A stretch of DNA of 64,000 nucleotides from Bacteroidales bacterium (GCA_016931855.1 JAFGDZ010000026.1:31472-95471); one strand, 5' to 3'; shown: positions 35,001 to 64,000, counted from the first letter of the stretch. The notes: generated by a model from the sequence alone, not told the origin. Made by a program: numbers and translations.

Positions 35001-38000
35001 CAACCGCATCGTTATCGGTGTTGGTAGCGCTAATATTTGCTATTGGTATTGCATTGTAATGCGGGTCGGCACTTGTTGCAGCAAAGCTGATGGAGAAGGT
35101 CTGCGAACCATCAGCAACATCGTCGTTAACACCAGTAAGGGTTACCGTTTGAGCGGCATCCCAATTTGTTGAATTGAATTTTAGAACCGACTTATCTAGA
35201 ACGCCCTCCAAAGCATTGCCCGATGTAATGGCAATGGAAACCTCGGCAGTTGGCTCCGATGTTAGCTTTACGGTAAAGGTGTCGGACGTTTCATCTTCTG
35301 ATGTTTCCAGCCCATCATTTACGTCAATGGTAACCCCAACGGCATCATTATCAGTATTAGTAACCGCCACATCGGTAATCACAAAACCATTGTACTTATC
35401 GTCGGTACTAGATACTGTTACCCCAATGGCATAATCTACATCGCCATCAGCCACAAAATCATTTTCACCAGTAACTGTAACAGTTACAGGAGTATCCCAA
35501 TCGGCTGGAGCAATAGAAATTGTTGCATTTGAGGTTACGCTTCCCTCTGTGGCATCCTTTGAGGTAGAGGTTATTACCACATTGGCCACAGGCTTACTTT
35601 TTAGCTTAACGGTAAAGGTAGCTGCAGTTAAATTCTCGCCAGTATTGCCGCTAATTGCCGAAACGGTTATTCCTGCTGTATTTATATCGATATTGGTTAC
35701 AGATACATCGGCAACATCTAGGTTTGTGTAGTTAGGGTCGTCGCTAATGGAATTGGCAAGAACCACGGTGTAGGTTTGGTCGCCATCATCAACATCATCA
35801 ACAACTCCGTTAACGGTAACCGTTTTGGCCGCCCAGTCGGTTGGTGTAAACGTAACGTTTGACACAGAAAGTGTGCCCTCGGTTAAATCGGACGACGACA
35901 CATTAATGGTAACATCCTTAACAGGCTGTGAGCTTAGCGAGATGGAGAACGTGTTACTTGCGCCCTCAGTAGTTTGCAACGTGGCCGTAGAAACGGTTAT
36001 ACCCGGTGTGTCATTATCAATATTGGTTACACTAATGGGGCTTCCCGTTACGCCATGGTAATCGGTATCGGCACTGGATGCTGTAGCTGTAAGGGTATAG
36101 GTTTTATTGCCATCGGCAACAACATCGTCCTTACCCGTAACAGTAACCACCTGAGCCACCGACCAGTTTGCCGTTGTAAACTCCAAAGAAGTTTTATCTA
36201 GCGAACCCTCAAGCGTGTTAAATCCTGTAATGCTAACCGTTACAGTATTTTTTGGGTTTGATGATAGGCTTACACCAAATGAGTCGGCAGTTCCATCCTC
36301 ACTGGTTGTTAAATTGGTCTTGGTTATAACCAACGCGGCAATATCGTTATCGGTATTGGTTGCATTAACCTGCCTACTGGGCACCGCAAGATAAGCTGCA
36401 TCGCCTGCTGTTACAGAGAAAGTAATTGTATATGGAGTATCGCCATCAATTGAGCTGTCGTTAACACCAGTAATGGTTATGGGCTGGTTAGTGTTCCATG
36501 TTGTGCTGTTAAATACCAGCTCGCTTACGGATACGGTTCCTTCATTTGTGTTGCTAGACACAACGCTAATGCGCACCTCTGCCGTTGGGCTAGATGAGAG
36601 CTTAACCTGAACCACATCGGTTCCACTACCCTCTGTTGTTGTAGCGGTTGTTTTGGAGAGCACAATGCCAGCTGTATCGTCGTCGGTATTGGTTACGGAA
36701 ACCTGAGCCGCTTTGCCAATGTACTTTGCATCGCCCGATGCAACGGAAAGGTTAACCTGATAGATAATATCGCCATCATCAACATTGTCGTTAACTGGTG
36801 TTACCGTAACCGTTTGTGGGCTATTCCAGTTTGTGGGCGTAAACGTTAACGTTCCTGCCGAAATAGTTCCCTCGCCCGTATTGCCAGAGGCTACGGTAAC
36901 AGGAACGTTTATGGTTGGCTTGGTATCAAGAACAACGGTAAACGAAACACCACTTCCTGCCTCACTTGTGGTAATGGCCGTTTTTGATACGCTTATTCCT
37001 GCATTGTCGTTATCGGTATTGGTCACCGAAACGCTGCTTATGGAGATACCATTATAGTTAGCATCAGCACTAGCAGCCGATAGGTTTATGGTGTAGGTAA
37101 CATCGTCGTCATCAACCAGGTCGTCGGCACCATTAACGGTTACCAGCTGCTCAGCATCCCAGTTTGATGGGGTAAACGTGTAAACCAGCGGCGTTACGCT
37201 ACCCTCGGTGCTTACAATGCCCGAAAGGGATATATCAACATTTGATGCTGGCTTCGAGGTAAGAACAAGGGTAAAGGAGTCGTTACCTCCCGCTTCCGAT
37301 GTAGATAGATTTGTTTTTGAAACAACCACCGAAGCAACATCGGCATCGGTATTGGTAACAGTTACATCGGCAGCATCTAGTCCGTTATAGTTAGCATCGC
37401 CACTAACAGCAGCAGCAACAGTAACGGTGTAGGTCTGAGGGCCATCAACCACCCAGTCCCTAACTGGAGTAACACTTATGCTCCTAGGTGTGTTCCAATC
37501 CGTAGCATTAAAAGTAATCGATGTTGGAGAAACTGTTCCCTCTGCAGTATTGCCTGAAAATATGGCAATGGTAACATTTGCCGATGGCTCAGTATCCAAC
37601 ACAATGGTAAACTGCGTGGCTACTCCGCCTTCGGTTGTTGCTATTGATGTAGTAGAAACAGTAATTCCAGGCTGATTAACGGTTATAATTCCTGGGTTAG
37701 TAAGTTCAATCTCACAATTTCCGTTGTTCGCTCGCACTTGGAATGTGTTTGTCCCAATGCTCAAGTTGCTACTAGGCACGTCAAGAACAAGGTCAGTGCC
37801 CCCCACTGCAATACCAGAGGATATAAGGGTTACACCACTATAAAGGCTATAGGTAATACCATCCTGCGGATTAACAACTGTTACTGTAGCGCTCTTACCT
37901 GGGTCAACCGTACTGCCCTGCACTGTGAGCCCGGCATTAGGAGCCGCAACCACGCTAATGGCAAAGCTAGGCGAGGTGTTCTCGCATCCATCCTTTTTAA

Positions 38001-40593: not shown

Positions 40594-41116
40594 ATAGTTA
40601 TTGTAAAGAATACGCATAAACACGAATACCACCAGCATTTAAAACACTGGTGGTATTCTTTTATTAAACCAAAATTAAAGACAAGTGAAAAACACAAATT
40701 GCAAAAACCATTACCAACAAGTTCTCTTTACATTATAGAGATAATAAATCCAAAAGGCAATTTGCGAGACTGAACCGCTGCAGAAAGCATCCAACACTAC
40801 TTTTAAAATTTGCAACATCCAAGTTTCCAAACCAATATTACGAAAAAAAGCAACACCAATGATTAGGATTACCAAAAATATTGACGAATATCACCTTTTG
40901 AGCGAAACCCTCGTCTGCTTAATAATTAGAACCAACCAGCAATAAGCATGTGCCAGCACATGCCTAAGCATTAAAAGTCTTTAACACAAAACAAAAGCAA
41001 ATAGGGCAAAGGGTAACGCTTTATAACTATATTTGCTAGAAGTGCAACAGAGTTAACGCCCTAAACACAAAGCATCAGTTAAGTATTAAATATCTAACCT
41101 TTAACCTAGATTAGCC

Positions 41117-49338: not shown

Positions 49339-50112
49339 ATGAAAGCAAAGGGACTAATTGGCACAACCCTCCTACTAATGCTTATTTCTGGCGCATTTGC
49401 AGCCAATCCAATAAGCAACATTGTAACCACAGAACCTCCTGACAAACTTCCTGAGGCAACTAAGGATAGTTTGGAGGTTACCCTATCGGCCGACATTCGC
49501 AACCGGCACACTTGGCGCGGTGGGCTCACCTGCGATGCTTGGAACTTCCAGCCTACACTAAACTTTACGTGGCGTAACTTTTTAGTTGGGGCGTGGGGTG
49601 TTTACACCGTTGACAACAAGTATGCTGAGGTTGATTTTTACGCATCGTACACCTACAAAAGCTTTACGCTAAGCGTGCTCGACTACTTTTGCCCAAACGA
49701 AACACTTGCCGTTAACCGTTTTTTCGATTACGACGACAAAACGACCCCTCACCTAATTGACATCAACCTACAGTTTAACGGAACCAAGTCGTTTCCCGTT
49801 AGAATTTTGGCATCAACCATTGTTTATGGCAACGATAAAAAGAGCGACGACCCAACAGAAAACAACTATTCCACATACGTTGAGGCAGGCTACAACTTCG
49901 CATCAAAAAAGGGCTACAGCTATGACTTTGTAGTAGGGACAACCCCTTTCGAAAGCTTTTACTCTAACAAGTTAAACGTTGTGAACATGGGATTTAAGGC
50001 ATCAAAAAAAATCAAGATTACCCCCTCATACAGCCTTCCTGTATTTGGTCAGCTTGTGCTAAATCCTTACAAAGAGAACCTCCATTTTGTGTTTGGCATC
50101 ACCATAGAATAA
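49339..50112 (+). CDS. hypothetical outer-membrane (beta-barrel-like) protein with signal peptide
   Basis: Signal peptide; alternating aromatic/hydrophilic beta-strand pattern; ends in an aromatic-rich C-terminus. No family recognised. Confidence 0.45.
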   Translation: MKAKGLIGTTLLLMLISGAFAANPISNIVTTEPPDKLPEATKDSLEVTLSADIRNRHTWRGGLTCDAWNFQPTLNFTWRNFLVGAWGVYTVDNKYAEVDFYASYTYKSFTLSVLDYFCPNETLAVNRFFDYDDKTTPHLIDINLQFNGTKSFPVRILASTIVYGNDKKSDDPTENNYSTYVEAGYNFASKKGYSYDFVVGTTPFESFYSNKLNVVNMGFKASKKIKITPSYSLPVFGQLVLNPYKENLHFVFGITIE

Positions 50113-50137
50113 CTTACGCTAAGCCCATACCGTTTAA

Positions 50138-50170
50138 AGCCAATCCCCCACGGATTGGCTTTTTCTTTTA
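50138..50170 (+). terminator. intrinsic terminator
   Basis: AAGCCAATCC-CCCAC-GGATTGGCTT hairpin followed by TTTTCTTTT. Confidence 0.55.
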
Positions 50171-50403: not shown

Positions 50404-51243
50404 ATGAACGTTACCGATCAAGACCTACAATATTTTATCTCGGCCCTTAAGAACTACACCAAATATGACTTCAGCGATTACTCAGATAAATCGCTGAAAA
50501 GAAGGGTTGAGAAGGTACTTGCAGACCGTAATTTAGATGTAACAGGGCTTATTACCAGCATTAAGAACTCTCAGGAATTTGCGGAGCTCATAGTAAAAGA
50601 GATTACCGTTAACACCACCGAACTTTTCCGCGATCCGCAAACCTGGCACCTTCTTCGTTCGCGCATTCTACCTCGCTTCAAAAACAACAAGAACATTAAC
50701 ATTTGGCATGCGGGCTGCTCAACAGGGCAAGAGGTGTACTCCATGATGATATTGCTAAATGAAATGGAGCTGTTTGACAAGGCCAAGATATTTGCAACCG
50801 ACCTAAACAGCGACGTTCTTGATGCAGCAAAAAAAGGACAGTACAAGTACCGATTTAACATAGGATACCTTGACAACTTCGACAAGGTTATTAAGCAAAA
50901 CCCCTTGAACTACGAGGAGTTTAATGATGTTCCCTACGACAAGTACTTTGAAATTGACAAAGCAAAGGATACCATCACCATGAAAAAGTTTCTTACGGAA
51001 AAACCCATTTTCCGTAAGCACGACCTAGTAAAAGATGGCAATCTGTTCTTCGCCAAGTTCGACCTCATACTTTGCAGAAACGTTATAATTTACTTCAACT
51101 ATAACCTGCAGAACAACGTATTTGAGCTATTCCACTCTAATCTATACCCCAAAGGGTGCTTGCTTTTAGGGATGCACGAAACAATACTTGGGCCATGGGC
51201 AACAAAATTTGAAAAGATAGGTCAGGCATACGTAAAAAAATAG
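50404..51243 (+). CDS. cheR: CheR-type protein-glutamate O-methyltransferase
   Basis: CheR N-terminal helical domain plus SAM-MTase with canonical IWHAGCSTGQEVYS motif. Confidence 0.85.
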   Translation: MNVTDQDLQYFISALKNYTKYDFSDYSDKSLKRRVEKVLADRNLDVTGLITSIKNSQEFAELIVKEITVNTTELFRDPQTWHLLRSRILPRFKNNKNINIWHAGCSTGQEVYSMMILLNEMELFDKAKIFATDLNSDVLDAAKKGQYKYRFNIGYLDNFDKVIKQNPLNYEEFNDVPYDKYFEIDKAKDTITMKKFLTEKPIFRKHDLVKDGNLFFAKFDLILCRNVIIYFNYNLQNNVFELFHSNLYPKGCLLLGMHETILGPWATKFEKIGQAYVKK

Positions 51244-51249
51244 ATTACC

Positions 51250-53640
51250 ATGAACCAGCTGAAAGGCATGAACTTTTTGAGAAATCTTAAAATGGGGCAA
51301 AGAATTCAACTCTTTGTCTTTCTCACCGTGGTAGCAACCTATACCATAACGGGCATCGTGCTTTCACGCTTTTCGGTAATCAATGCCGAAAACACATCAA
51401 GAAATCAGGTTAGCGTTTACATTAACACCCTGCAAAGCATAGTTGACCTTCAGGAACGCATAACCAAAAACGGTATAGACCAAACAGATATAACAGCCCT
51501 AAAAACGCACTTTTATAAAGCCGCATTTCACAAAACCGATTTCCCTTTCATCCTAAGTAATACCGGACGCTACCTGCTACATATAACAAAGGAGGACCAA
51601 CGTATTCCTAAAGATATCTTTGTTCAAATAGCAAGCAACCCCAACAGGCAAGGGTGGATTACGGTTGAAACAACACAAGGAACCGAAGAAGTTTACTACA
51701 AATACATTAGCGAATACGACATATACCTTGGCATTACCACCCCATACAAAGAAATAGTTAAAGACGTAAAACAGAACCGCTTTTTAATGATTCTTGTGGT
51801 AACTCTTGCCATAGGCCTTTTCTTTATAACAGTATTGCTAATAATAAAGCCAATAACAAAAACGATTCAACAAGTTAACGACACCATTAAGATGATGGCG
51901 CTTGGGCTTGAGGGGCATAAGCTTAACCGAGAGCAAAACGACGAGCTTGGCCAGATTACAGAATCGCTAAACACACTTACCGAAGGGCTAAGCAGAACAT
52001 CTCACTTCGCTAACGAACTTGGGAACAACAACCTAAACGCCGAGTTCCAACCCCTTAGCAACGAAGACATTCTTGGCAACGCCCTTATATCCATGCGCAA
52101 TAGCCTCAAAGCAGCCGAAATAGAAGAGAAACGCCGCAAGCAAGAGGACGAAACCAGAAACTGGATTACCTCTGGACTTGCCATGTTTGGCGATATACTG
52201 CGCCAAAACAACAACAACCTTGCGCTCCTTGCCGATAGCGTTACCCAAAATTTGGTAAACTACCTAAACGCGAATCAAGGCGGACTATTCATTTACAATA
52301 ACGACGATACATCAAACCCACACCTTGAACTTGTATCGGCCTTTGCATACAACAGAAAAAAGTTCTTTGAAAGGACAATTGCCCTTAACGAAGGGTTAGT
52401 TGGCACCTGCGCCGTAGAAAAGAACACCATATACCTAAAAGAGATTCCCGATGGTTATATTACCATAACCTCAGGATTAGGGGAAGCAACACCTACATCG
52501 CTACTAATTGTACCACTAAAACTAGAGGACACAATTTTTGGAGTAGTAGAGATAGCCTCATTTGCCGAGTTCTCTCAACACGAAATTGAATTTGTTGAGA
52601 AAATTGGCGAAAGTATTGCCTCAACCCTTTTCTCCGTAAAGAATGCCATTCGCACCACCCATTTGCTGGAGCAATCGCAGCAGCAACGTGAGGAAATGGC
52701 AGCACAAGAAGAGGAAATGCGCCAAAATATGGAGGAAATGCAAGCCACACAGGAAGAGATGGCTCGCAAAACCATTGAGATGGAAGGAATATCTAAAGCC
52801 ATTGACCAAGCGCTAATATACTGCGAGCTAGACGAGGATGCCAATATTTTCCTTCCTAACGATAACCTAGCCGCAGCAATGGGCTACCCCAAGCATGAAC
52901 TCGATGGAGTTAACCTAAGCGAGATTGTCCATATCAGCAACAAAAAGGAGATTGCCGCAATTCGTAACGAGATTGCCCTTGGCGCTCCATACAAAGGAAC
53001 CCTGCACCTAATTAATCGCGATGGACAGGATCTCTACCTGCACACTAACATAAGCCCAACCTTTGACGAGCTTGGTGGTATTTACAAAATCATTCTAATT
53101 GGTCAGGATATAACCGAAAGCAAGCTACTGGAGATAAAAGCCCAGAAACAAGCAGACGAGATAGAGGCAAACCTTGTAGAAATAAAGGCAGAGCAACAGC
53201 TTGCCCAAATGAAAGAGAACGACATTAAGGGTTTACTCCAAGCACTGGACACAACATGCCTAATTACAGAAATTGAACTTTCTGGGAAAATCACCTATAT
53301 AAACAATAAGAATGTGGAAACACTAGGTGATCCAAAAGATAAAATTGAAGGTAAGTACCACCGCGATTTGGATGGCCTTGCAAAGAAAAGTCCTAAAGAG
53401 TACGAGGCATTCTGGAACAGCCTACTTTCTGGCATTTCGCAGAACAGGGTATTTAGCCTAACCGTAAATGGCATTGAGAAATGGATATCGGAGCACTACA
53501 CCCCTGTAACCGACGATAATGGTAATGTAACCAAGGTAATAAACATTGGCTTCGACATAACCGACAGCAAGGAGAAAGAGAAAGAGATGCAACGCCTTAT
53601 TGCAGAAATAGAACAGCTAAAAAAGAACAACAATAAATAA
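51250..53640 (+). CDS. membrane sensor with TM, HAMP, GAF, MCP-like methylation heptads and PAS domains
   Basis: N-terminal TM and HAMP-like region (about 51800-52050). GAF domain (about 52250-52650). Stretch QQQREEMAAQEEEMRQNMEEMQATQEEMARK (52671-52775) matches the MCP methylation-site consensus EExxA[ST]. Followed by two PAS-like segments. Confidence 0.7.
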   Translation: MNQLKGMNFLRNLKMGQRIQLFVFLTVVATYTITGIVLSRFSVINAENTSRNQVSVYINTLQSIVDLQERITKNGIDQTDITALKTHFYKAAFHKTDFPFILSNTGRYLLHITKEDQRIPKDIFVQIASNPNRQGWITVETTQGTEEVYYKYISEYDIYLGITTPYKEIVKDVKQNRFLMILVVTLAIGLFFITVLLIIKPITKTIQQVNDTIKMMALGLEGHKLNREQNDELGQITESLNTLTEGLSRTSHFANELGNNNLNAEFQPLSNEDILGNALISMRNSLKAAEIEEKRRKQEDETRNWITSGLAMFGDILRQNNNNLALLADSVTQNLVNYLNANQGGLFIYNNDDTSNPHLELVSAFAYNRKKFFERTIALNEGLVGTCAVEKNTIYLKEIPDGYITITSGLGEATPTSLLIVPLKLEDTIFGVVEIASFAEFSQHEIEFVEKIGESIASTLFSVKNAIRTTHLLEQSQQQREEMAAQEEEMRQNMEEMQATQEEMARKTIEMEGISKAIDQALIYCELDEDANIFLPNDNLAAAMGYPKHELDGVNLSEIVHISNKKEIAAIRNEIALGAPYKGTLHLINRDGQDLYLHTNISPTFDELGGIYKIILIGQDITESKLLEIKAQKQADEIEANLVEIKAEQQLAQMKENDIKGLLQALDTTCLITEIELSGKITYINNKNVETLGDPKDKIEGKYHRDLDGLAKKSPKEYEAFWNSLLSGISQNRVFSLTVNGIEKWISEHYTPVTDDNGNVTKVINIGFDITDSKEKEKEMQRLIAEIEQLKKNNNK

Positions 53641-53656
53641 TCTATCAATACAAGCA

Positions 53657-54487
53657 ATGATAAGATTTGAGATAGGCATAGTTGATACAAGGAACGTACT
53701 TAAGGCAATTCTTGATGCCTATGGGTACGATTTTAAAGATTATGCCCTTACCTCTTTAAAAAGAAGAATAGAACTCTTTGTTGCCAACGAGGGGCTAAGG
53801 GATATTGATACCCTAATTAGCCGTTTGCAGCAAGGGAAAGACTATTTTGAGCGCTTTCTACAATCCATAACCCCTGAAACTACCGAAATGTTTAGGGATC
53901 CATCGCTGTGGAGAAATCTCAGAGATCATATTCTTCCTGATATTACCAAAGGAACAACGCGCCCCAAAATATGGTTAGCAGGATTCGATTCTGGTGAACA
54001 GCTTTACTCCCTAGCAATTATCCTAAAGGAGATGAACTTGCTTACTGAAGTTCAGCTATACGCCTCGTACATTAGCGACTTTACACTGGAGAAAATAAAG
54101 AATGGAACCGCTGATATTAAGCAACTTGAGGTAAATGAGGCAAACTACTCTAGGCTTGAGGGCAAGGGCTCGTTTTCCGATTATTACAAAACGGCGAACG
54201 GAACGGTAACCCTTGACAACCAGCTAATTCAAGGCGTAAACTTTGTTAAGCAAACCCCAGCCTTTGATCAAGGGCCAGGTGGCGTAAAAATGGTTCTTTT
54301 TCGCAATCAAACCATTTACTTTAACCAGCTGCTAACCGACCGATCCGTTAACGCCATGTACAACGCCTTAGTACCAGGCGGTTACCTTGTTCTAGGAATT
54401 AAGGAATCTTTGGAAAATACAAACTCAAACAATAAATTTACCGTTGTTAACGAGTCTGAACAGATTTATAAGAAAAAAACACTATAG
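53657..54487 (+). CDS. CheR-like methyltransferase paralog with degenerate SAM-binding motif
   Basis: Alignable to CheR (FRDP..W..L) but the GCSTGEE motif is replaced by IWLAGFDSGEQLYS. Confidence 0.7.
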   Translation: MIRFEIGIVDTRNVLKAILDAYGYDFKDYALTSLKRRIELFVANEGLRDIDTLISRLQQGKDYFERFLQSITPETTEMFRDPSLWRNLRDHILPDITKGTTRPKIWLAGFDSGEQLYSLAIILKEMNLLTEVQLYASYISDFTLEKIKNGTADIKQLEVNEANYSRLEGKGSFSDYYKTANGTVTLDNQLIQGVNFVKQTPAFDQGPGGVKMVLFRNQTIYFNQLLTDRSVNAMYNALVPGGYLVLGIKESLENTNSNNKFTVVNESEQIYKKKTL

Positions 54488-54493
54488 CACTAG

Positions 54494-55051
54494 ATGTATA
54501 AAGCAGTAATCATAGGAGGTTCAGCAGGCAGTTTTCAGGTAATAACCCGAATCCTTCACTCGTTACCCCCAACGTTTCCCCTTCCCGTACTTTTAAGCCT
54601 ACATAGGCTAAAGCACGTACGAAGCGGCTTTGTTGAAGCGCTTTCTATAAAATCGGGCATTCCAGTTGTTGAACCATTTGATAAAGATCAGATAAAACCG
54701 GGCCGAGCATACCTTGCCCCTGCCAACTACCATATGTTTATTGAGCTTGGCAACAAAATAGCCCTATCAACAGAGGAGCCAGTAAACCACTCTAGGCCAA
54801 GTATCGATTTATCATTTGTAACAGCCGCACAGGTTTACAGAGACAAACTTGTTGGCATTATACTCTCCGGAGCAAACCGCGATGGAGCCTACGGCCTAAA
54901 AAAGGTAAAAGACTTGGGCGGATTAACCATTGTACAAGATCCGCTAGAATGCCAAGTAAAAACAATGACAGAGGCCTCAATGAAACTTACTAAGGTAGAT
55001 CACGTTTACTCTACCAACGAGATCATAAAATTCCTGCAAAGCATAAAATAA
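54494..55051 (+). CDS. cheB: CheB-type methylesterase domain protein without receiver domain
   Basis: 185 aa with catalytic GGSAGS (Ser), NHSRPSID (His) and GANRDGA (Asp). No REC domain. Confidence 0.85.
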   Translation: MYKAVIIGGSAGSFQVITRILHSLPPTFPLPVLLSLHRLKHVRSGFVEALSIKSGIPVVEPFDKDQIKPGRAYLAPANYHMFIELGNKIALSTEEPVNHSRPSIDLSFVTAAQVYRDKLVGIILSGANRDGAYGLKKVKDLGGLTIVQDPLECQVKTMTEASMKLTKVDHVYSTNEIIKFLQSIK

Positions 55052-55057
55052 CATACC

Positions 55058-55849
55058 ATGAAGCAACTTAAAGCCCATTCAAGGTTAATCCCCTCGTTAC
55101 TACTTGCGCTGCTAATGGTAGGCATTCTGCTAATTTTCCTAGTCTATCACAACGCCCTTGTTGGCGCTAACGCTAAGGCTAACGAAACGGGTGCTATTCT
55201 ATTTATCCTTTTAAGTGCAGCCATTGCTGTTGCCCTATTCCTACAAACAACACAAGCCATAAGCAAGAACCAAGGGCTTTCCGAAGAGGTTGCTTCCCTT
55301 AAACGTACAATTAAAGCTTCGCAGCAAAAAAAGGAGGTTATTGAAACCACTACCGAAATTACCATTGATGCTAACGCTGAGGCTGACAAGCTAATTCCCA
55401 ACCCCCACTCCGACGATCAGATCTCTTTCCTTGAGAAGCTACTCTCAAACATTGCCAAGCAACACGATATTGTTCAAGGCCTTGTTTACCTAAAAGACCA
55501 CGAATCGGGCATATTCAGCTTTACCGCAGGCTATGCATTCTACACCGAAACAGCACCCCCAACCTACACCGAGGGAGAAACGCTATCGGGGCAAGTTGCA
55601 AAAAACAAAACGCTACTAAACATATCCGATATCCCAACCGATTACATCACAATACTTTCAGGACTAGGAAAGGGGTCGCCAAAGCATTTACTAATTATTC
55701 CTATATTAGGGAACGATGATCAGACCATTGGAATCATCGAATTAGCATCATTCTCTCGTATCAACACAACAAACGAAGAGGTTTTTGCTTTACTAGGGAA
55801 AAAACTAGGCGCTCTTATTTCCAATACCAATAAACTCATTGAGGAATAG
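55058..55849 (+). CDS. membrane-anchored GAF-domain protein
   Basis: Two TM helices, a coiled coil, then a GAF domain paralogous to those in the flanking sensors (DYITILSGLGKGSPKHLLIIPIL...IGIIELASF). Confidence 0.6.
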   Translation: MKQLKAHSRLIPSLLLALLMVGILLIFLVYHNALVGANAKANETGAILFILLSAAIAVALFLQTTQAISKNQGLSEEVASLKRTIKASQQKKEVIETTTEITIDANAEADKLIPNPHSDDQISFLEKLLSNIAKQHDIVQGLVYLKDHESGIFSFTAGYAFYTETAPPTYTEGETLSGQVAKNKTLLNISDIPTDYITILSGLGKGSPKHLLIIPILGNDDQTIGIIELASFSRINTTNEEVFALLGKKLGALISNTNKLIEE

Positions 55850-55850
55850 T

Positions 55851-58463
55851 ATGACATTAATTAGCAGCACGGCAGTAACCAGTGGCAATAACTTAGCAAA
55901 GCAGCGAGCCATTATTGCAGCAGCAATTGGCCTGCTGTTTCCTATTGCTGCATGGATGATTGATTTTGCCTTAAAAGACATTGCCTTTAGCCTATCAGGA
56001 ATAGCCCAATTACACGCAGTAAACCCTACCCATTGGTTTATTGACCTACTCCCCGTAGTGTTCGCGTTCCTAGCATGGAGCCAAACGCAAAGGCATCAGG
56101 CTAAAGTGGAATTCCTTGAAGAGCAGCTAAATCAACGCGACGAGGACATAAACAAGAACGCCCTGTTTGCCAAAAAAATAGGTAACGGAGAGTACACCGC
56201 GCCCTTTGAAGTAAGCGACGAGGAGGATATACTAGGCAAGTCGCTACTAATGATGCGCGACAACCTAATTGAGAACAACAGAAAAGAGGCCGAACAAAAC
56301 TGGATAGCAAAGGGGAAAGACGAGATTTCCTACATACTCCGGCTACACAACTCCATTGACGAGCTCTCCTACGACGTACTAGTAAAGCTAATAAAGTACA
56401 TAAACTCCATACAAGGAGCTATTTACATTTTTGATGAGGATAAAGACAAGCTAATAAACCTTGCCACATACGCCTACAATCGTAAAAAGTATGTTTCCCA
56501 AGAATTTAAAGTGGGACAAGGGCTAATTGGGCAATGCGCATACGAACAAGACTTTATTTACCGCACCGAAATACCCGACGATTACGTAACCATAACCTCG
56601 GGCATCCTTGGCGACAAAAAGCCCAAGAGCTTACTTCTAGTACCCCTTACCACCGACGAAAAGCTACAGGGCGTACTTGAGTTTGCGTCTGTTGCCCCAG
56701 AGATACCTGAGCTAACCATCCGCTTTATACGCGAAGTGGGCGAGATTATTGCCCGCACCGTATTTAACCTTAAGATAAACCACAAAACAGAGCGGTTACT
56801 ACAGGAAGCACAGCAGATGACCGAAGAGCTTCGAGAGAATGAGGAGGAGCTGCGGCAAAATGCCGAGGAGATGCGTGCAACCCACGAAGAGCTAGAAAAA
56901 TCTAACGCTCAGCTGGAATCAAAAATCCAAGAAGTTGAGAACGCCCAAAAAAGGCTTCACTCACTTCTCGAGAATGCATCGGAGATAATCTCCATATACA
57001 ACAAAGAGCTTAAGCTAACCTTTATAAGCCCCTCTGTAACCAAAATCCTAGGCTACACCCCACTTGAGATGATGAGTGGAAAGGATATGGATCGTCTAAC
57101 CCGTAAAGGGGAGCAAGAGGTTAAAAGCATGTTTGAGCAGCTACTCGAAACCCCACGAGTACCTATCTCCATCCAGTACACCTTTATGAAAAAGGATGGC
57201 GAGAAAATTTTCCTTGAGGTTACAGGCAGAAACCTACTTGACGACCCAGCAATTAACGGCATTATCCTTAATTCACAAGACATTACGGAGCGCAAGCGAG
57301 CCGAGAAGGAAGAGCGTATGCGTAGTAAAATGCAAGCCCTATCGGAGAACTCTCCCGACATGATTATGCGCTTAAACACCGCAGGGCAGTTCTTCTACGC
57401 CAACCCCATGGTTGAAATCTACCTTGGAATCCCAGCAAAAGACCTGATTAACCAAACCCTGAACACCATAAATATTCAGGATACGCTTTCCAACTTCTTT
57501 AAAGATGCCATTAAGAACATCAAAATAAGCAAAGAGAAGTTTGAAGGCGAACTCGCCTTTGACTCGCAAATGGGAGAAACCATAATGCACATCAAGGCAA
57601 TCCCAGAATTCAACGAGAACGAGCTAGAAACCATCCTATTTGTTAGCCACGACATTACAGAGGCCAAGCGAATAGAGATGGAAATTCAGGATAAGAATCG
57701 TAAAATTACCGAGAGCATTAACTATGCGCAGCGTATCCAAACCTCAATTCTGCCAAACAATAGGGTAATTAGGCAATACCTGCCAAAATCGTTTATACTA
57801 TACAAACCACGCGATGTGGTAAGCGGCGACTTCCCTTGGTTTTTCCTTAAGGAGGATAATATCTATATTGCAGCAGTAGATTGTACTGGACACGGCGTGC
57901 CAGGTGCGCTACTATCGTTCATTGGCTACTTTATTCTGAACAACGTTGTTGACCATGATGTTAGCTACACCGCAGGACAAATACTTGACAACCTACACTA
58001 CGGCGTTCGTAAAACGTTAAAACAGGACAGACCCGATGCCGATGCAAGGGATGGTATGGATATTGCGCTCTGCAAAATCGACCTAAAGAAAAATGAGCTA
58101 CAATTTGCAGGCGCACATAGGCCATTGTATCTACTCCGAAAAGGAGAGCTCATTGAGTATAAGGGCGACAGAAAGGCCATTGGCGGAATACCTCACCCCA
58201 AAAAGGGTGAAGTTGACTTTGCTAACCATGTGCTAGAAATTATGCCAGGCGATAAAATCTTTTTCTTCTCCGACGGGCTACCCGACCAAGTTGGCGGCAA
58301 CGATAAGAAAAAGTACAGCCCAGGCCGCATAAGGGAGCTAATTATGGCAAACCAGCAATACTCTATGCCACAGTACTCAGACCTGTTCTCTGGTGACTTT
58401 GAAGACTATAAAGGCAACAACAAACAAGTTGACGACGTACTGCTAATTGGGATTGAATTCTAA
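55851..58463 (+). CDS. membrane sensor with HAMP-like region, GAF, MCP-like methylation heptads, two PAS domains and a C-terminal PP2C/SpoIIE Ser/Thr phosphatase
   Basis: Start set at ATG 55851, directly after the upstream stop. GAF (DYVTITSGILGDKKPKSLLLVPL). Methylation-like EELRENEEELRQNAEEMRATHEELEK (about 56801-56900). PP2C motifs SGDFPWF, AAVDCTGHGVPGA, DGMDIALC, FFFSDGLPDQ. Confidence 0.75.
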   Translation: MTLISSTAVTSGNNLAKQRAIIAAAIGLLFPIAAWMIDFALKDIAFSLSGIAQLHAVNPTHWFIDLLPVVFAFLAWSQTQRHQAKVEFLEEQLNQRDEDINKNALFAKKIGNGEYTAPFEVSDEEDILGKSLLMMRDNLIENNRKEAEQNWIAKGKDEISYILRLHNSIDELSYDVLVKLIKYINSIQGAIYIFDEDKDKLINLATYAYNRKKYVSQEFKVGQGLIGQCAYEQDFIYRTEIPDDYVTITSGILGDKKPKSLLLVPLTTDEKLQGVLEFASVAPEIPELTIRFIREVGEIIARTVFNLKINHKTERLLQEAQQMTEELRENEEELRQNAEEMRATHEELEKSNAQLESKIQEVENAQKRLHSLLENASEIISIYNKELKLTFISPSVTKILGYTPLEMMSGKDMDRLTRKGEQEVKSMFEQLLETPRVPISIQYTFMKKDGEKIFLEVTGRNLLDDPAINGIILNSQDITERKRAEKEERMRSKMQALSENSPDMIMRLNTAGQFFYANPMVEIYLGIPAKDLINQTLNTINIQDTLSNFFKDAIKNIKISKEKFEGELAFDSQMGETIMHIKAIPEFNENELETILFVSHDITEAKRIEMEIQDKNRKITESINYAQRIQTSILPNNRVIRQYLPKSFILYKPRDVVSGDFPWFFLKEDNIYIAAVDCTGHGVPGALLSFIGYFILNNVVDHDVSYTAGQILDNLHYGVRKTLKQDRPDADARDGMDIALCKIDLKKNELQFAGAHRPLYLLRKGELIEYKGDRKAIGGIPHPKKGEVDFANHVLEIMPGDKIFFFSDGLPDQVGGNDKKKYSPGRIRELIMANQQYSMPQYSDLFSGDFEDYKGNNKQVDDVLLIGIEF

Positions 58464-58502
58464 AATTGATTATTACTTGCAAATTATATAATTTTACGGG
58501 CT

Positions 58503-59078
58503 ATGGATAAGAAAAATGTCAGAGGATTTCTTGAGTTCGTTTACGACTTTTACAAGTCGATGAAAGCTCATGAAATAACCCTTGTTTACGAGGGAGAAAT
58601 CACGCACCAAATCACCAAGGCCTTTACTTCACTCACCGAGTCGAATATGGCCAAAGAGGAGGAATCCAACTCTGTACAAAAAAAGGTATTCCATGTAATG
58701 GTAGAGTGCCTCCAAAATATCAGCAAGCATGCTGATAGCTTTGGGTCAGACGACTTCCTTTTTGCTGGACGCGGCATATTTATGGTAAGCAAAGGCGAGG
58801 ATGATTACCACGTTACCACTGGTAACGTAATTGAGAACTCTAAAATTGATGAGCTATCGAGGATTCTCGACAACATTAACCAGCTGGATAAGGAAGGGCT
58901 AAAACAGCTCTACAAAACCCAGATGCGCGAAGGAAGGCTCTCCGAAAAAGGCGGGGCTGGACTTGGCTTTATCGACATCGCACGCAAAACTGGAAGAAAG
59001 CTGGAGTACCACTTCCTTCCTATTGATGAAGAAACACATTTCTTTATTTTAACATCAACCATTTCTAGAAACGGATAA
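58503..59078 (+). CDS. GHKL-ATPase anti-sigma-factor-like Ser/Thr kinase (SiaB/RsbW-like)
   Basis: N-box ECLQNISKH (ExxxNxxxH) and G2 box GGAGLGF in a 191-aa protein immediately downstream of the PP2C sensor. Confidence 0.55.
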   Translation: MDKKNVRGFLEFVYDFYKSMKAHEITLVYEGEITHQITKAFTSLTESNMAKEEESNSVQKKVFHVMVECLQNISKHADSFGSDDFLFAGRGIFMVSKGEDDYHVTTGNVIENSKIDELSRILDNINQLDKEGLKQLYKTQMREGRLSEKGGAGLGFIDIARKTGRKLEYHFLPIDEETHFFILTSTISRNG

Positions 59079-59091
59079 AACACATCTCGAT

Positions 59092-59475
59092 ATGGAAACC
59101 ATAAAAATAATGGGAACCGACGACACCCCAACGGTTATTCTTGACGCTGAAAATGACATTTTTGAAATCTCAGGCCGCTCGCTCCCCGAGGATGTTACAG
59201 CCTTTTACGATCCGATTCTAAATTGGCTCGATGAGTACGCTAGCAGTCCCAATACCAAAACCGCATTTAACTTTAAACTCGTTTACTTTAACACTGCGAG
59301 CTCAAAGCTGCTGCTTGATATTCTTATGAAGCTGGAGCAAATGCACGAGGACGGGAAAGATGTTGTTGTTAAGTGGTTCTATCCTGAGGACGACGAGGAT
59401 ATGCAAGAGGCGGGCGAAGAGTATGCCGACATAGTTGACGTGCCCTTTGAGCAAATTGGATATACCCTTAACTAA
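59092..59475 (+). CDS. DUF1987-like (SiaC-like) small protein, candidate phospho-substrate / partner-switch component
   Basis: 127 aa. Length, the acidic C-terminus and the pattern TPTVILDAENDIFEISGRSLPEDVTAFYDPILNWL match my memory of the DUF1987 family fold. Confidence 0.5.
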   Translation: METIKIMGTDDTPTVILDAENDIFEISGRSLPEDVTAFYDPILNWLDEYASSPNTKTAFNFKLVYFNTASSKLLLDILMKLEQMHEDGKDVVVKWFYPEDDEDMQEAGEEYADIVDVPFEQIGYTLN

Positions 59476-59516
59476 ACCATTTGTACCCTTTAGGTAACCA
59501 CAACCCTGCATAGAAA

Positions 59517-62500
59517 ATGAGTGAAGAGATTCTGAAAGCGTTAATGCAGCTTTTTGCTATTATCGCTAAGCAAGACGAAGGTGTTGAATCAAATGAGCGC
59601 GACTACGTTGTTAACTTCCTCACTCAACAGCTAAACGATGAGGCCGTTAAGGAATACATCACCCTTTTTGATGAACATGCAGGGCTAAACGAGAAGGAAG
59701 AGGAGGAAGAGAGAGACGGCAAACCCAAAAAGCGCAAGCTGACCTCGGTAAAGGACTCGGTAAGGATACTTGGTATTTGCAAGAAGATTAACAAGACCCT
59801 TACCCAGAAGCAAAAGGTTGTTGTTCTAGTTCGCCTTTTTGAACTGGTTAATGCCGATCGGAAATTTACCGATCAGCGCATGGCCATTATCAACACGGTA
59901 GCAGAGGTTTTTAAGCTCTCCAAAGAGGAGTTTACCGATATTGAAACCTTTGTAATTAACAACGACCCCCAAACCCTGGACTATGCAAGCATTCTCGCCA
60001 TCCATGACAAGCCCGAAAAAGGAGAGAACTGTAAGCATATCCCAACCGAAGCGCTTGATGGTTATATCTACATACTCCAAATAAAGAGCGAAGATTTATA
60101 CTTCCTCCGTTACGTTGGGAATGAAGATGTTTTCCTAAATGGACTGCCCATAAACAACAAAAGAATTTACCTGTTTGCCAACGGCAGTTCCATTAAGCTG
60201 CCTAAGGGCAAACCCATTTACTATACCGACGTAGTTGCTCACTACCTTGCCGACACCAACGCTACCAGAATATCGTACCAAGTAGAAAACCTTGGCTTCA
60301 CATTTAAAACTGGGGGAATTGGGCTAAGAGACATTTCCTTTTCCGAAGGGCACGGCAAGCTTATTGGCATTATGGGTGCCAGTGGAGCCGGAAAAACCAC
60401 ATTGCTAAACGTTCTGGCAGGCATAGAAAGCCCCACAAGCGGCAAAGTGCTGATAAATGGTATAGACCTCCATTCCGAAAAAGATCAACTGGAAGGGGTT
60501 ATTGGGGTTATTCCTCAAGACGACCTTCTTATTGAGGAGCTTACCGTTTTTGAGAACCTTTACTATAACGCAAAACTTTGCTTTAAGGATAAATCGGAAG
60601 AGGAGCTAACCCAACTTGTACATAAAACGCTGAGCAACCTTGGACTTTTTGAGCGCAAAGACCTTAAGGTTGGTTCGCCCCTAAACAAAATGATATCGGG
60701 CGGGCAGCGCAAAAGGCTAAACATCGCCCTTGAGCTTATAAGGGAACCATCCATCCTGTTTGTAGACGAGCCAACATCGGGGCTTTCATCAAGAGACTCC
60801 GAGAATGTGATGGATCTACTACGCGAGCTTACCCAAAAAGGCAAGCTCATTTACGTTGTTATTCACCAGCCATCATCGGACATATACAAGATGTTCGATA
60901 ACATGATGATCCTAGATACTGGTGGCTACATGATTTACTACGGCAACCCAGTTGAAGCGGTTATGTACTTTAAGCGCCTCGACATGCAGATTAACAGCGA
61001 TGTTGGAGAGTGCCCCACCTGTGGTAACGTTAACCCAGAGCTCATATTCAACATCATTGAAGCAAAGGTTGTTGATGAGTTTGGCCAGTACACCCCCATA
61101 AGAAAAGTATCTCCACCTAAATGGGGCGAGTACTTTACGGAGAACATCAAAATTAAGAAAGTTGAAACCGAAGAGGTTAAGCCACCAAAATCGCTTAACA
61201 TCCCATCAAGGCTTAGCCAATTCCTTATTTATACTACCCGCGATTTTCTCTCCAAAATAAGCAATAGCCAGTACATTGCGCTAAACTTACTGGAAACGCC
61301 TGTATTGGCATTCATCCTAGCATATGTAATTAGGTATATTGCCGACCCAAACTCCAGCATTTACATATTTAGGGAAAACGAGAATATCCCCATTTACATA
61401 TTCATGTCGCTAATTGTAGCCCTATTCATAGGATTAACCGTTAGCGCCGAAGAAATTTTTAGGGACAGAAAAATTCTTAAGCGAGAATCGTTCTTAAACC
61501 TGAGCCGGACTAGCTATCTATTCTCCAAAATATCAATTCTACTAAGCCTTTCGGCTATCCAATCCATATCGTTTGTACTAATTGCCAACTCCATTCTGGC
61601 AATAAACGGAATGTACTTTGAGTACTGGCTAGTGCTATTCTCCACAGCCATATTCGCCAATATGCTTGGGCTTAATATCTCGGCAACATTCAACTCTGCC
61701 GTAACCATATACATCGTAATCCCCCTTATAATGATCCCCATGATGGTTCTTTCTGGAGCCATGTTCAGCTTTGACAAGCTAAACCGAAGCGTTGGCAGCA
61801 TAAGTAAAGTACCTCTTATTGCTGAGTTTATGGTAACCAAATGGGGATACGAGGCACTTATTGTGCATCAGTTTAAGGATAATGCCTTTCAGAAAAACTT
61901 CTACGATATAGAGAAAGTTGAACGCAACGCCAACTACAAAACAGTTTACTATATACCTGAGCTAACCAAAAGAGCAGAACAGAGCATTTCGTTACTCGAC
62001 AAGAAGGACGACCCAAAGGCAATGGCCCAGCTAACCGACAACCTAGCCGTGCTCCGTAAAGCGATGTTTACCGAAACCAACTACATGGCACCAGCCATAC
62101 CCTATAACTACCTAAATAACCTAACCGTTAACGACTTTAACGAAGAGGCGGGATTTGCCACGCTTGACTACCTTAACGAACTTAACAAGCACTACAACGC
62201 AATATTTGGAACGGCAAACCAGAGAAAAGACCGAATTATTAACCACCTTGTTAGCACAAATGCCGAGCTCTACGAGGCAAAGAAAAGAGCGTACCACAAT
62301 GAATCCGTAGCCGATTTGGTGCTAAAAACCTTTGAGAAGAACAAAATTCTCCAGTATAAGGACGAGCTAGTTCAACAATACGATCCAATATACAGAGATC
62401 CAATACCGAATCACGCACTAGATTTTAGATCGCACTTCCTAGCTCCCAGAAAGCATTTTATGGGTAACTACTACGACACATTCTGGTTCAACGTACTGAT

Positions 62501-62606
62501 TATTTGGATTATGACCATAATCCTATATATTACACTATACTTTGAGATGCTTAAACGTTTGTTAGATCTATTTGCCAAAATTAAACTACCTACAGCATCA
62601 AAATAA
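59517..62606 (+). CDS. fused TerB-like / FHA-like / ABC ATPase / ABC-2 permease (ABCG-type half transporter)
   Basis: Two TerB-like helical repeats at the N-terminus. FHA-like segment (YFLRYVGNEDVFLNGLPINNKRIYLFANGSSIKL). Walker A GASGAGKTT, signature SGGQRKR, Walker B ILFVDEPTSGL. Six TM helices at the C-terminus. Confidence 0.8.
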   Translation: MSEEILKALMQLFAIIAKQDEGVESNERDYVVNFLTQQLNDEAVKEYITLFDEHAGLNEKEEEEERDGKPKKRKLTSVKDSVRILGICKKINKTLTQKQKVVVLVRLFELVNADRKFTDQRMAIINTVAEVFKLSKEEFTDIETFVINNDPQTLDYASILAIHDKPEKGENCKHIPTEALDGYIYILQIKSEDLYFLRYVGNEDVFLNGLPINNKRIYLFANGSSIKLPKGKPIYYTDVVAHYLADTNATRISYQVENLGFTFKTGGIGLRDISFSEGHGKLIGIMGASGAGKTTLLNVLAGIESPTSGKVLINGIDLHSEKDQLEGVIGVIPQDDLLIEELTVFENLYYNAKLCFKDKSEEELTQLVHKTLSNLGLFERKDLKVGSPLNKMISGGQRKRLNIALELIREPSILFVDEPTSGLSSRDSENVMDLLRELTQKGKLIYVVIHQPSSDIYKMFDNMMILDTGGYMIYYGNPVEAVMYFKRLDMQINSDVGECPTCGNVNPELIFNIIEAKVVDEFGQYTPIRKVSPPKWGEYFTENIKIKKVETEEVKPPKSLNIPSRLSQFLIYTTRDFLSKISNSQYIALNLLETPVLAFILAYVIRYIADPNSSIYIFRENENIPIYIFMSLIVALFIGLTVSAEEIFRDRKILKRESFLNLSRTSYLFSKISILLSLSAIQSISFVLIANSILAINGMYFEYWLVLFSTAIFANMLGLNISATFNSAVTIYIVIPLIMIPMMVLSGAMFSFDKLNRSVGSISKVPLIAEFMVTKWGYEALIVHQFKDNAFQKNFYDIEKVERNANYKTVYYIPELTKRAEQSISLLDKKDDPKAMAQLTDNLAVLRKAMFTETNYMAPAIPYNYLNNLTVNDFNEEAGFATLDYLNELNKHYNAIFGTANQRKDRIINHLVSTNAELYEAKKRAYHNESVADLVLKTFEKNKILQYKDELVQQYDPIYRDPIPNHALDFRSHFLAPRKHFMGNYYDTFWFNVLIIWIMTIILYITLYFEMLKRLLDLFAKIKLPTASK

Positions 62607-62667: not shown

Positions 62668-63576
62668 ATGAGCAGAAATATTGCCATTACCCTAGCGTTT
62701 CTATTGCTATTTACATCATGTCGGTTTTTTGAGTCTGACAAAACAAGCGATGAGTTTGATATACCAGACTCACTCCTAATAGACGAGCAACCCCTTGCCG
62801 TTTCGGCAGATATTGTTGACGATATGGTTCAAAACATATCCTCAACAGTGGAAACTGCGGCTATTATAAAAAGTCTTAAAATCCCTTTCAAAAAGGATTA
62901 CCTAGCAGAGACTAGATACTCCGACCAGTTTAACACCAACTTTAGGAAGGCATTAGGCTTAGGCATCTATGGAGCCGACCTAGGCTACCTAAACATGTAC
63001 GAAAAAACATCAATGGTTGTGGACTACATCTCAACCATTAAATCGTTAGCCGATGGCATACAGGTGGGGCAATTCTTTGACTTTTCCACGCTAAAAAGAC
63101 TTGCAACCAACAACGAGAACCTAGATTCGTTAGTTTTTATTTCTCAACAAAGCTTTAATCGTATAGACACATACCTCAGAGAAACAAACAGATCCAGTCT
63201 TAGCGTAGTAATTGTTACAGGAGTTTGGATAGAAGGATTGTATCTTTCGACAAGAGTGGCACAAGATGTGTATAATGAAAAGATAAATGAAACAATTGGG
63301 GAGCAAAAGGTAATTATTTCAACCCTGTTGTTACTACTGAACAACTACAAGGCCGATCCGAACATTAAAGCGCTTGTTGCCGATTTGGAGGAGATTAAAG
63401 TTCTTTACGATCAAGTTAGAATTACCATTGAGGTTGGAGAAACGGTTCCTATCGAGAAAGATGGTGTACTAACGTACCAACAAAACGATGTACAAACGAT
63501 TCACATGTCGGACGAGCTCTTAAAGCAAATTGTAGAAAAGGTTCAGAGCGTGAGAAATCGAATTATTAAAGGCTAA
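62668..63576 (+). CDS. hypothetical lipoprotein
   Basis: Lipobox LLLFTSC. No recognised family. Confidence 0.45.
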   Translation: MSRNIAITLAFLLLFTSCRFFESDKTSDEFDIPDSLLIDEQPLAVSADIVDDMVQNISSTVETAAIIKSLKIPFKKDYLAETRYSDQFNTNFRKALGLGIYGADLGYLNMYEKTSMVVDYISTIKSLADGIQVGQFFDFSTLKRLATNNENLDSLVFISQQSFNRIDTYLRETNRSSLSVVIVTGVWIEGLYLSTRVAQDVYNEKINETIGEQKVIISTLLLLLNNYKADPNIKALVADLEEIKVLYDQVRITIEVGETVPIEKDGVLTYQQNDVQTIHMSDELLKQIVEKVQSVRNRIIKG

Positions 63577-63596: not shown

Positions 63597-64000
63597 ATGA
63601 GAAATACTATTCTAATACTTCTAACATCCTTTTTCCTAGTAAATTTTACAGGAAAAGCGTTTGCTCAAACCGAAGACGAGCTTATTGAAATCTGTGGAAT
63701 GGTTGCCAAAGAGGCCACCTACCTCAAAGACTTTAAAATTAGGTTAGACGCAGGAGACCCGCCTCCAACTCAACGTTTTTCAGTTATTCTAAAGAAAGAC
63801 ATTAAGTACCGCTTTTCGGTTTGTAACTCTAAGGACTTTGAAGGAAAGGTTGTGCTGCAGCTATTCGACAACAACCGCTTGCTAGCCACCACTCATGTTA
63901 TTGCTACAGGCAAGGACTACCCTTCAATAGATTTTAACTGCCAAAAAACGGGAGCCTATCACCTATTCTTCCAGTTTAAAGATGGGAAGGCAGGTTTAGC
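63597..64000 (+). CDS. hypothetical secreted protein (partial; the 3' end runs off the window)
   Basis: ATG at 63597 and signal peptide MRNTILILLTSFFLVNFTGKAFAQ. The ORF continues to the window end. Confidence 0.4.
   Translation, partial: MRNTILILLTSFFLVNFTGKAFAQTEDELIEICGMVAKEATYLKDFKIRLDAGDPPPTQRFSVILKKDIKYRFSVCNSKDFEGKVVLQLFDNNRLLATTHVIATGKDYPSIDFNCQKTGAYHLFFQFKDGKAGL

Follow-up and report, generated by a model that had tools for sequence, protein, structure and literature searches.

A CheR/CheB adaptation module encoded with a SiaABC-type partner switch and an ABC exporter in Bacteroidales: a candidate chemosensory-like pathway without CheA in view

Results

Nine closely packed genes and their surroundings

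The subject of this analysis is a gene cluster in a window of 64,000 nt from a Bacteroidales bacterium (GCA_016931855.1, JAFGDZ010000026.1:31472-95471), in which positions are counted from the first letter. An earlier note on this DNA had proposed that the region 50404-62606 is an operon in which chemotaxis-type methylation enzymes are coupled to a Ser/Thr partner switch, with an ABC exporter as the output. The layout of the open reading frames (ORFs) and Pfam searches confirmed that this region contains nine closely packed genes, all on the + strand and separated by gaps of only 1-41 bp, which we named g1 to g9. Together they encode CheR- and CheB-type enzymes, GAF-containing membrane proteins, the three components of a SiaABC-type switch and an exporter. 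The features of the cluster are as follows (TM, transmembrane).

50136-50162 (+): terminator-like hairpin, an 11-pair stem followed by a T run, which ends the upstream gene
50404-51243 (+): g1, CheR-type glutamate O-methyltransferase, predicted to be active (Pfam CheR, 4.6e-39, and CheR_N)
51250-53640 (+): g2, accessory receptor without an output domain, 796 aa (Pfam HAMP (weak), GAF, PAS, PAS)
52663-52770 (+): glutamate-rich heptad helix of g2, aa 472-507 (36 residues), candidate methyl-accepting segment
53657-54487 (+): g3, degenerate CheR paralogue, probably non-catalytic (Pfam CheR, 7e-21)
54494-55051 (+): g4, CheB methylesterase/deamidase, catalytic domain only (Pfam CheB_methylest, 1.6e-47)
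55058-55849 (+): g5, small membrane-anchored GAF protein (Pfam GAF_2, 3e-8; two TM helices)
55851-58463 (+): g6, hub receptor with a PP2C (SiaA-like) phosphatase (Pfam GAF, PAS, PAS and SpoIIE, the last at 1.7e-16)
56790-56906 (+): glutamate-rich heptad helix of g6, aa 318-356, ...EELRENEEELRQNAEEMRATHEELEKSN, candidate methyl-accepting segment
58503-59078 (+): g7, SiaB-family Ser/Thr protein kinase (Pfam DUF6272, 4e-45)
59092-59475 (+): g8, SiaC-family (DUF1987) phosphoprotein (Pfam SiaC, 3.6e-43)
59293-59295 (+): codon of the predicted acceptor Thr68 of g8 (alignment to Pseudomonas aeruginosa SiaC)
59517-62606 (+): g9, ABCG-type exporter with an N-terminal regulatory module, 1029 aa (Pfam TerB, ABC_tran, ABC2_membrane)
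62668-63576 (+): d1, conserved lipoprotein (signal peptide and lipobox Cys18), outside the interval given by the earlier note
63597-64000 (+): d2, conserved small secreted protein (signal peptide), the gene being cut by the window end

The hairpin at 50136-50162 is the sole intergenic one, and it is separated from g1 by a non-coding leader of 240 bp; hairpin and leader are the 5' boundary of the unit. Inside the cluster, a scan for terminators gave 15 candidates versus 14.9 in shuffled sequence, and a scan for sigma-70 promoters gave 25 versus 24.7, so that neither was in excess. At the 3' side the unit is longer than the nine genes proposed before, with d1 and d2 coming after the exporter.

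Just 5' of the cluster, and ending at the strong hairpin, lies a gene for a secreted protein of 257 aa that has no Pfam match (49339-50112, + strand). Sequences similar to this protein are found 5' of g1 in about 14 of 80 related loci, mostly at 29-51% identity (94% in one locus, L001).

Genes g6, g7 and g8 correspond to a SiaABC-type partner switch

Residue conservation, here and below, was read from alignments of 67-80 orthologues per gene. Profile searches bore out the PP2C and DUF1987 assignments (SpoIIE, 1.7e-16, for g6; SiaC, 3.6e-43, for g8). The phosphatase part of g6 matches the NCBIfam SiaA profile over region 396-655 at 4e-51, which is below the equivalog cut-off, and none of the metal-binding Asp motifs of PP2C varies among 70 orthologues.

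The product of g7 had been described as a GHKL anti-sigma-like, SiaB-like kinase. Its place in the SiaB family was upheld by NCBIfam NF038262, “SiaB family protein kinase” (179.8 bits versus a cut-off of 85), and by similarity to P. aeruginosa SiaB (PDB 6KKO_A; 1.3e-14 over aa 21-181), but HATPase_c_2 does not match g7 and the family is instead DUF6272. Residues E68 and N72 (E-x-x-x-N) and the glycine motif GGAGLG (GxGxG) are invariant in the orthologues.

The g8 product scores 146.5 bits with Pfam SiaC (cut-off 24.5) and 91 with the NCBIfam SiaC equivalog, below its cut-off of 150. The alignment to PDB 6KKO_C / 6K4F (9e-16) is gap-free and places T68 of g8, which is kept in 66 of the 67 orthologues, on T68 of P. 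aeruginosa SiaC. In P. aeruginosa this residue, located within LLYLNTSSIK, is phosphorylated by SiaB and dephosphorylated by SiaA (PMC7647112). The assignment of g6, g7 and g8 as a SiaA/SiaB/SiaC-type switch predicted to act on Thr68 is therefore well supported, by homology to a characterized system and by conserved residues.

The CheR and CheB enzymes have intact active sites

All 67 orthologues of g1 retain the S-adenosylmethionine (SAM) loop WHAGCS[TS]GQE, together with R76, Y230 and D133, the acidic ligand for ribose. The Pfam CheB_methylest domain covers aa 5-180 of the 185 aa of g4, which has no receiver domain, in agreement with the receiver-less CheB of the earlier note (1.6e-47), and all 80 sequences compared keep GGSAGS, H37 and D130. 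Both g1 and g4 thus have intact active sites, and g1 is predicted to be active.

The second CheR-like protein, g3, is much less conserved, having 7% invariant columns versus 35% in g1. Only 20 of 77 g3 sequences retain the SAM-loop Gly, and Ser, Cys or Val takes the place of the acidic ribose ligand; neither position varies in g1. These losses justify the label “degenerate CheR”. The protein is probably not a methyltransferase, and it would probably serve as a non-catalytic partner that binds receptors.

Components of a CheA-based phosphorelay are absent from the window

The absence of CheA, CheW and CheY from the window was corroborated in two ways. Pfam detected no CheW, Hpt, HATPase_c, Response_reg or MCPsignal domain in any ORF of at least 130 aa in the 64 kb, and a six-frame tblastn search of the window with CheW, REC, Hpt, methyl-accepting chemotaxis protein (MCP) and CheY queries picked up nothing beyond PAS similarities and the catalytic domain of CheB. 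CheA and CheW are also absent from the cluster in 80 genome loci and from that of Fulvivirga maritima (see below). Likewise, no GGDEF protein was found in the cluster or elsewhere in the window.

The receptors share a glutamate-rich helix

The g6 receptor consists of two TM helices, a GAF domain, a glutamate-rich helix, two PAS domains and the PP2C domain. Its start is most likely the ATG at 55851, because the g6 orthologues are 870 aa long. The layout of g2 is TM, an outside domain of about 135 aa, TM, HAMP, GAF, the glutamate-rich helix, PAS and PAS. This first sensor had been listed among the nine genes of the operon, but g2 is present in only about half of the related loci, and elsewhere g1 and g3 are spaced by 3-30 bp. 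A core role is thus ruled out and g2 is best described as an optional accessory. The small g5 protein (263 aa) has a GAF domain of the receptor subfamily and no glutamate-rich helix; its position is conserved, yet only 5% of its columns are invariant, and it has a common SGLG motif.

In both g2 and g6, the helix sits between the GAF domain and the first PAS domain. In g6 it spans aa 318-356 (ERLLQEAQQMTEELRENEEELRQNAEEMRATHEELEKSN) and is near-invariant in 70 orthologues, with divergent flanks. It contains EE pairs at aa 335/336, 343/344 and 350/351, that is, 7-8 residues apart, and in the same orthologues E/Q exchange occurs at aa 329, 337, 353 and 360. The motif EE[LM][RQK]A[TS] is present in 31 of 34 g2-type and 59 of 74 g6-type proteins, including both F. 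maritima receptors. The 1751 other ORFs of these loci all lack it, as do the other proteins of the cluster and all 76 g5 sequences. In a profile built from 298 instances of the helix, four EE pairs are spaced by heptads; Glu exceeds 90% in the central two, and Gln is the chief substitute at positions -10, -5, +13 and +20.

The classical methylation consensus of enteric MCPs (Terwilliger/Nowlin-type) is Glu-Glu-x-x-Ala-Ser/Thr. The EEMRAT and EEMQAT sequences of the helix fit this consensus, as two of the EE pairs do, which we regard as a lead and not as a test. Pfam MCPsignal (PF00015) has no match in g2 or g6, which rules out that the segment is an MCP signalling domain. What remains of the “methylation” domain named in the earlier note is a plausible segment that is specific to both sensor families, in the form of a glutamate-rich heptad helix.

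The cluster is conserved in Bacteroidales and in a cultured Cytophagales species

A scan of a genome collection with g4 yielded 80 loci, all of them from Bacteroidales metagenome-assembled genomes (Tenuifilaceae, Salinivirgaceae and relatives; 68-99% identity), the nearest being that of Bacteroidales UBA5206. Full 10 kb flanks were available for 37 loci, and in 36 of these g1, g3-g9 and d1 lie on one strand; because these core genes are kept together in this way the cluster is not a chance arrangement.

The conserved neighbourhood that the earlier note called for was also found outside the Bacteroidales, in F. maritima, a cultured, gliding and non-flagellated member of the Cytophagales (PMC10113389). 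The gene order there is receptor, CheR, CheB, GAF protein, HAMP-GAF-PAS-PP2C receptor, DUF6272, SiaC, TerB-ABC and homologues of d1 and d2. The TerB-ABC protein is split over two genes, and there is a single CheR, g3 being absent.

Some loci depart from this pattern. In three of them (L053, L062 and L108) a hybrid histidine kinase (PAS-HisKA-HATPase-REC) follows SiaC instead of the exporter, and no CheR is in view; L053 begins with CheD, the chemoreceptor glutamine deamidase. Two others (L083 and L084) have an added REC-CheB, a further CheR and kinase or two-component genes, and L084 also has CheD. This suggests that in some lineages a histidine kinase may feed back on CheB. The same two loci contain two DUF6272 (SiaB-like) genes in tandem, in assemblies with frameshifts. 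Finally, one locus (L079) contains CheR, CheR2 and CheB only.

The receptors belong to a very large family

In a search for homologues of full-length g6, the best 120 matches were all at least 68% identical, so a pattern scan and representatives of 50% clusters were used. The first of these, which is independent of CheB, consisted in scanning metagenome contigs for the DNA pattern encoding Q-N-x-E-E-M-x-A-T-x-E-E, and 80 of the loci selected in this way were read. In 75 of them the motif is located just after the same GAF subfamily. PP2C-type receptors account for 20 of the 80: CheB is upstream in all 15 that have at least 1.2 kb of upstream sequence, and the five without CheB have less than 400 bp. 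Downstream, SiaB and SiaC are present in 14 of 14 PP2C-type loci with more than 2 kb of sequence and in two of four with 1.4-1.6 kb. The other 60 receptors have no output domain and consist of dCache, sCache or Reg_prop/Y_Y_Y outside domains, GAF, the helix and 0-4 PAS domains.

When the GAF-plus-helix module of g6 was compared with 1.84 billion cluster representatives, 2957 clusters were obtained at E<=1e-30 and 7581 at E<=1e-10. A sample of 55 family members contained GAF in all 55, PAS in 47, HAMP in 18 and SpoIIE in 16, together with MCP-type sensor domains (dCache_1, sCache_3, 4HB_MCP, PilJ and CHASE3). Among the 25 commonest of the 38 domain families in this sample, PP2C is the sole catalytic output, and histidine-kinase, GGDEF and MCP signalling domains do not occur. 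Judged by their sequences, g2 and g6 are thus members of a very large MCP-like receptor family that is scattered through genomes.

One of ten other motif-bearing proteins scanned is a true MCP (PAS-PAS-HAMP-MCPsignal), encoded in locus L146 (330-4033, - strand), its operon partners being CheW and a CheY-like receiver. The same glutamate-rich helix precedes the PAS domains of this MCP, and the locus has no GAF module. In evolutionary terms, the protein may connect the new receptor family to classical chemoreceptors.

Three members of the family (P0370, P0374 and P0437), of 2000-2400 aa, lack an output domain and are built of up to seven tandem units of glutamate-rich helix plus PAS that recur about every 170 aa, an unusual poly-module design for a receptor.

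The gene after SiaC usually encodes an exporter with an FHA-like domain

The g9 product combines an ATP-binding and a membrane part in one chain (Pfam ABC_tran, 5.7e-33; ABC2_membrane, 1.5e-20) and matches TIGR00955 at 6.4e-76, which is below the cut-off. The order of its parts is a TerB-like helical domain (59517-59957), an FHA-fold domain (59979-60221), the nucleotide-binding domain, the ABC-2 membrane domain and a C-terminal extension with one further TM helix.

A phosphothreonine-reading FHA domain had been proposed for this protein. The second domain was assigned by its fold, an FHA beta-sandwich, and it is to this extent FHA-like, but no FHA signature was detected at the sequence level. 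Pfam FHA gave no match to aa 147-268 at E<=1 and no precomputed match in 120 homologues, and the hhalign probability for a g9-family profile versus the FHA domain of GarA was 0.2%. The domain has no invariant Arg; S191 and N208-G209 are conserved, and positions R/K188, K/R198 and K/R227 are basic.

An ABC exporter gene follows SiaC in 70 of 73 loci, the other three being those with the hybrid histidine kinase. The exporter would therefore be the usual output, though not the only one.

The d1 protein is a helical bundle with a small sheet behind the signal peptide. By tblastn, d2 is located right after d1 in 55 related loci; it has no Pfam match, and its Fulvivirga homologue (143 aa) is 29% identical.

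Discussion

A chemosensory-like pathway built on a Ser/Thr switch

We propose that the cluster encodes a chemosensory-like pathway, without CheA in view, in which a Ser/Thr partner switch replaces the CheA-CheY phosphorelay; we give this reading a probability of roughly 0.55. The receptors follow the scheme outside sensor domain-TM-(HAMP)-GAF-glutamate-rich helix-(PAS)n. Most of them, including g2, lack an output domain, and one receptor per system, g6, ends in PP2C and is encoded with the enzymes. On the basis of homology and conserved residues, g7 is predicted to phosphorylate Thr68 of g8, and the PP2C domain of g6 to remove the phosphate. Gene order suggests that the phosphorylation state of SiaC would then decide whether it binds and regulates the neighbouring effector. 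This effector would usually be the TerB-FHA-like N-terminal module of g9, and in a minority of genomes the hybrid histidine kinase. Gene order also suggests that g9 probably works with the lipoprotein d1 and the secreted d2.

Adjacency and motif specificity point to the receptors as substrates of the adaptation enzymes. The g1 enzyme would methylate Glu residues in the heptad EE pairs of the helix, in g2, g6 and scattered members of the family, and g4 would demethylate or deamidate the helix, with CheD possibly also acting as a deamidase in some genomes. Resetting the receptor output through methylation might in turn tune the PP2C domain and provide adaptation or gain control. Because the CheB protein has no receiver domain, feedback would operate through conformation-dependent access to the sites and not through CheB phosphorylation.

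Several observations weigh against this proposal. Every second EE pair departs from the full MCP consensus, and in poly-PAS members the helix stands before every PAS domain, in up to seven copies, so the helix could be a purely structural linker; its methylation is a candidate property suggested by adjacency and motif specificity. The output-less receptors that have at least 3 kb of sequence on both sides lack adjacent CheR and CheB in four of four cases, as ordinary MCP genes are likewise usually far from cheR and cheB. At the output end, the FHA-like domain has neither a detectable FHA signature nor an invariant Arg, and in one locus (L082) the TerB-ABC exporter occurs without the cluster. 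The absence of CheA and CheW covers the window and the cluster loci, and a set of these genes elsewhere in the genome is possible.

The alternative that survives best accepts the switch, but has CheR and CheB serve conventional MCPs encoded elsewhere, or a protein that is not a receptor, and takes the helix for a coiled-coil linker before PAS. It would account for the repetition of the helix before each PAS domain in multi-PAS proteins and for the fact that most motif-bearing receptors are not beside CheR/CheB. It also agrees with the true MCP of L146, in which the same helix lies outside the MCP signalling domain. Nevertheless, we consider it unlikely. In the motif-selected loci, CheB is directly 5' of the PP2C receptor in 15 of 15 cases, this arrangement recurs in two orders, and MCP, CheW and CheA are absent from the 64 kb window. 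Moreover, the helix is conserved far beyond the needs of a linker, its substitutions are E/Q, and CheD is present in variant clusters. To our knowledge, Bacteroidota are generally reported to lack CheA-based chemotaxis, which we also count against this alternative.

According to a second alternative, SiaC does not target the exporter. The exporter would merely be co-transcribed, or it or its substrate would feed the sensors, and SiaC would act on a diguanylate cyclase, a kinase or another effector encoded elsewhere. The characterized SiaC acts in its unphosphorylated form, binding its effector SiaD, a diguanylate cyclase, via the stalk (PMC8457831). The apparent lack of canonical phosphothreonine-binding residues in the g9 FHA-like domain, the solitary TerB-ABC gene of L082 and the hybrid kinase that stands in for the exporter in three loci are also in line with this alternative. 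We rate it as slightly more doubtful than the first. In 70 of 73 loci the gene after SiaC is the ABC gene (at a distance of 13-41 bp in the window), g9 has a dedicated cytoplasmic N-terminal module which ordinary ABCG exporters lack, and no GGDEF protein is encoded in the cluster. In addition, the authors of the SiaC structure proposed the regulation of adjacent proteins as a probable general role of DUF1987 proteins (PMC8457831). If SiaC does control the exporter, as we propose, the contact could be made by phospho-SiaC through the FHA-like domain, as the earlier note had it, or by unphosphorylated SiaC as with SiaD.

Relation to known systems

With SiaABCD of P. aeruginosa, the cluster shares a PP2C receptor, a SiaB kinase and SiaC in the same order, the conserved Thr68 and catalytic motifs, and an effector gene directly after SiaC. 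It differs in that the effector is a TerB-FHA-like ABCG exporter, rarely a hybrid kinase, where P. aeruginosa has the diguanylate cyclase SiaD. Furthermore, the sensor part of SiaA is periplasmic/HAMP whereas that of g6 is GAF, glutamate-rich helix and PAS-PAS, a CheR, a degenerate CheR, a CheB and a GAF protein are added upstream, and g6 and g8 score under the NCBIfam SiaA and SiaC equivalog cut-offs.

The likeness to the chemotaxis adaptation module (CheR/CheB, in some species CheD) consists in the intact CheR and CheB active sites, in the EE/QE pairs of the helix with heptad spacing, which partly conform to EExxA[ST] and are candidate sites known from sequence, in the MCP-type outside sensor domains and in the scattering of receptor genes away from the enzyme genes. 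Unlike in chemotaxis, there is no MCP signalling domain, CheA, CheW and CheY are not in view, and CheB is receiver-less. The candidate substrate is a single GAF-PAS helix and not a four-helix bundle, and the output is a Ser/Thr phosphatase. Alternative-output chemosensory systems (class ACF, such as Wsp of Pseudomonas) also couple chemotaxis-type methylation enzymes to an output other than motility. However, these systems keep MCP, CheW and CheA and work by His-Asp phosphotransfer, none of which is seen in the 64 kb window.

The exporter resembles Rv1747 of Mycobacterium tuberculosis (FHA-FHA-ABCG, regulated by PknF) in having an N-terminal FHA-fold module and an adjacent Ser/Thr kinase gene (PMC3138270). 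The two FHA domains of Rv1747 are canonical and bind phosphothreonine, whereas g9 has one divergent FHA fold without a Pfam match, plus TerB. The kinase is of the Hanks type in the former case; g7 is of the SiaB type, whose known substrate class is SiaC and not the transporter.

In the literature that was searched, we found no paper linking CheR/CheB with SiaC, DUF1987, DUF6272, PP2C or SpoIIE, and within these bounds the claim that the system is undescribed stands. It appears to be a new combination of known parts, with a candidate new class of methyl-accepting receptor that is at present defined by sequence. Overall, the gene content given in the earlier note holds up, the unit is conserved, and the motifs of the triad, CheR and CheB are intact. 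The corrections concern the kinase family, the FHA reading, g2 as a core part, the extent of the unit and the exporter as its only output, and the large receptor family had escaped the earlier note.

We know of no described CheR/CheB adaptation that runs other than through an MCP-CheW-CheA core. If our proposal is correct, a Ser/Thr partner switch has acquired methylation-based adaptation, and glutamate methylation occurs on a class of non-MCP receptors that comprises about 3000 sequence clusters. It would also provide a first handle on signal processing with memory in gliding, non-flagellated Bacteroidota, and would add an ABC exporter as a second class of effectors to the SiaC family. The prediction is directly testable because there are cultured hosts, namely F. 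maritima and Tenuifilum thalassicum, which has the PP2C receptor.

More tentatively, gliding Bacteroidota without flagella might possess a full analogue of chemotaxis, made up of thousands of non-MCP methyl-accepting receptors, CheR/CheB/CheD, the PP2C-SiaB/SiaC switch and an envelope export machine, although we would not bet on this extension. The export machine (ABCG exporter, lipoprotein and secreted protein) could steer gliding, adhesion or the release of matrix.

Other genes in the window

A gene on the + strand (9289-14967) encodes a cargo protein of the type IX secretion system (T9SS) of 1892 aa, with a Lamin-tail domain, Big_5 and CHU_C. In L079, a protein of the same domain architecture (2497-8148) is encoded immediately 5' of the stand-alone CheR-CheR2-CheB trio.

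On the - strand, a gene at 26074-40638 encodes a protein of 4854 aa that combines over 20 Big_9/cadherin-like repeats with a type IX secretion signal (CHU_C). It lies directly upstream of an adjoining PorP/SprF gene (25128-26066, - strand). The two genes encode a giant adhesin secreted by the T9SS and its dedicated PorP-like partner, a pairing typical of gliding Bacteroidota.

At 622-5291 (- strand), two CbiK-type cobalt chelatase paralogues adjoin a TonB-dependent receptor. This locus probably serves the uptake of corrinoids or metal and is unrelated to the cluster described here.

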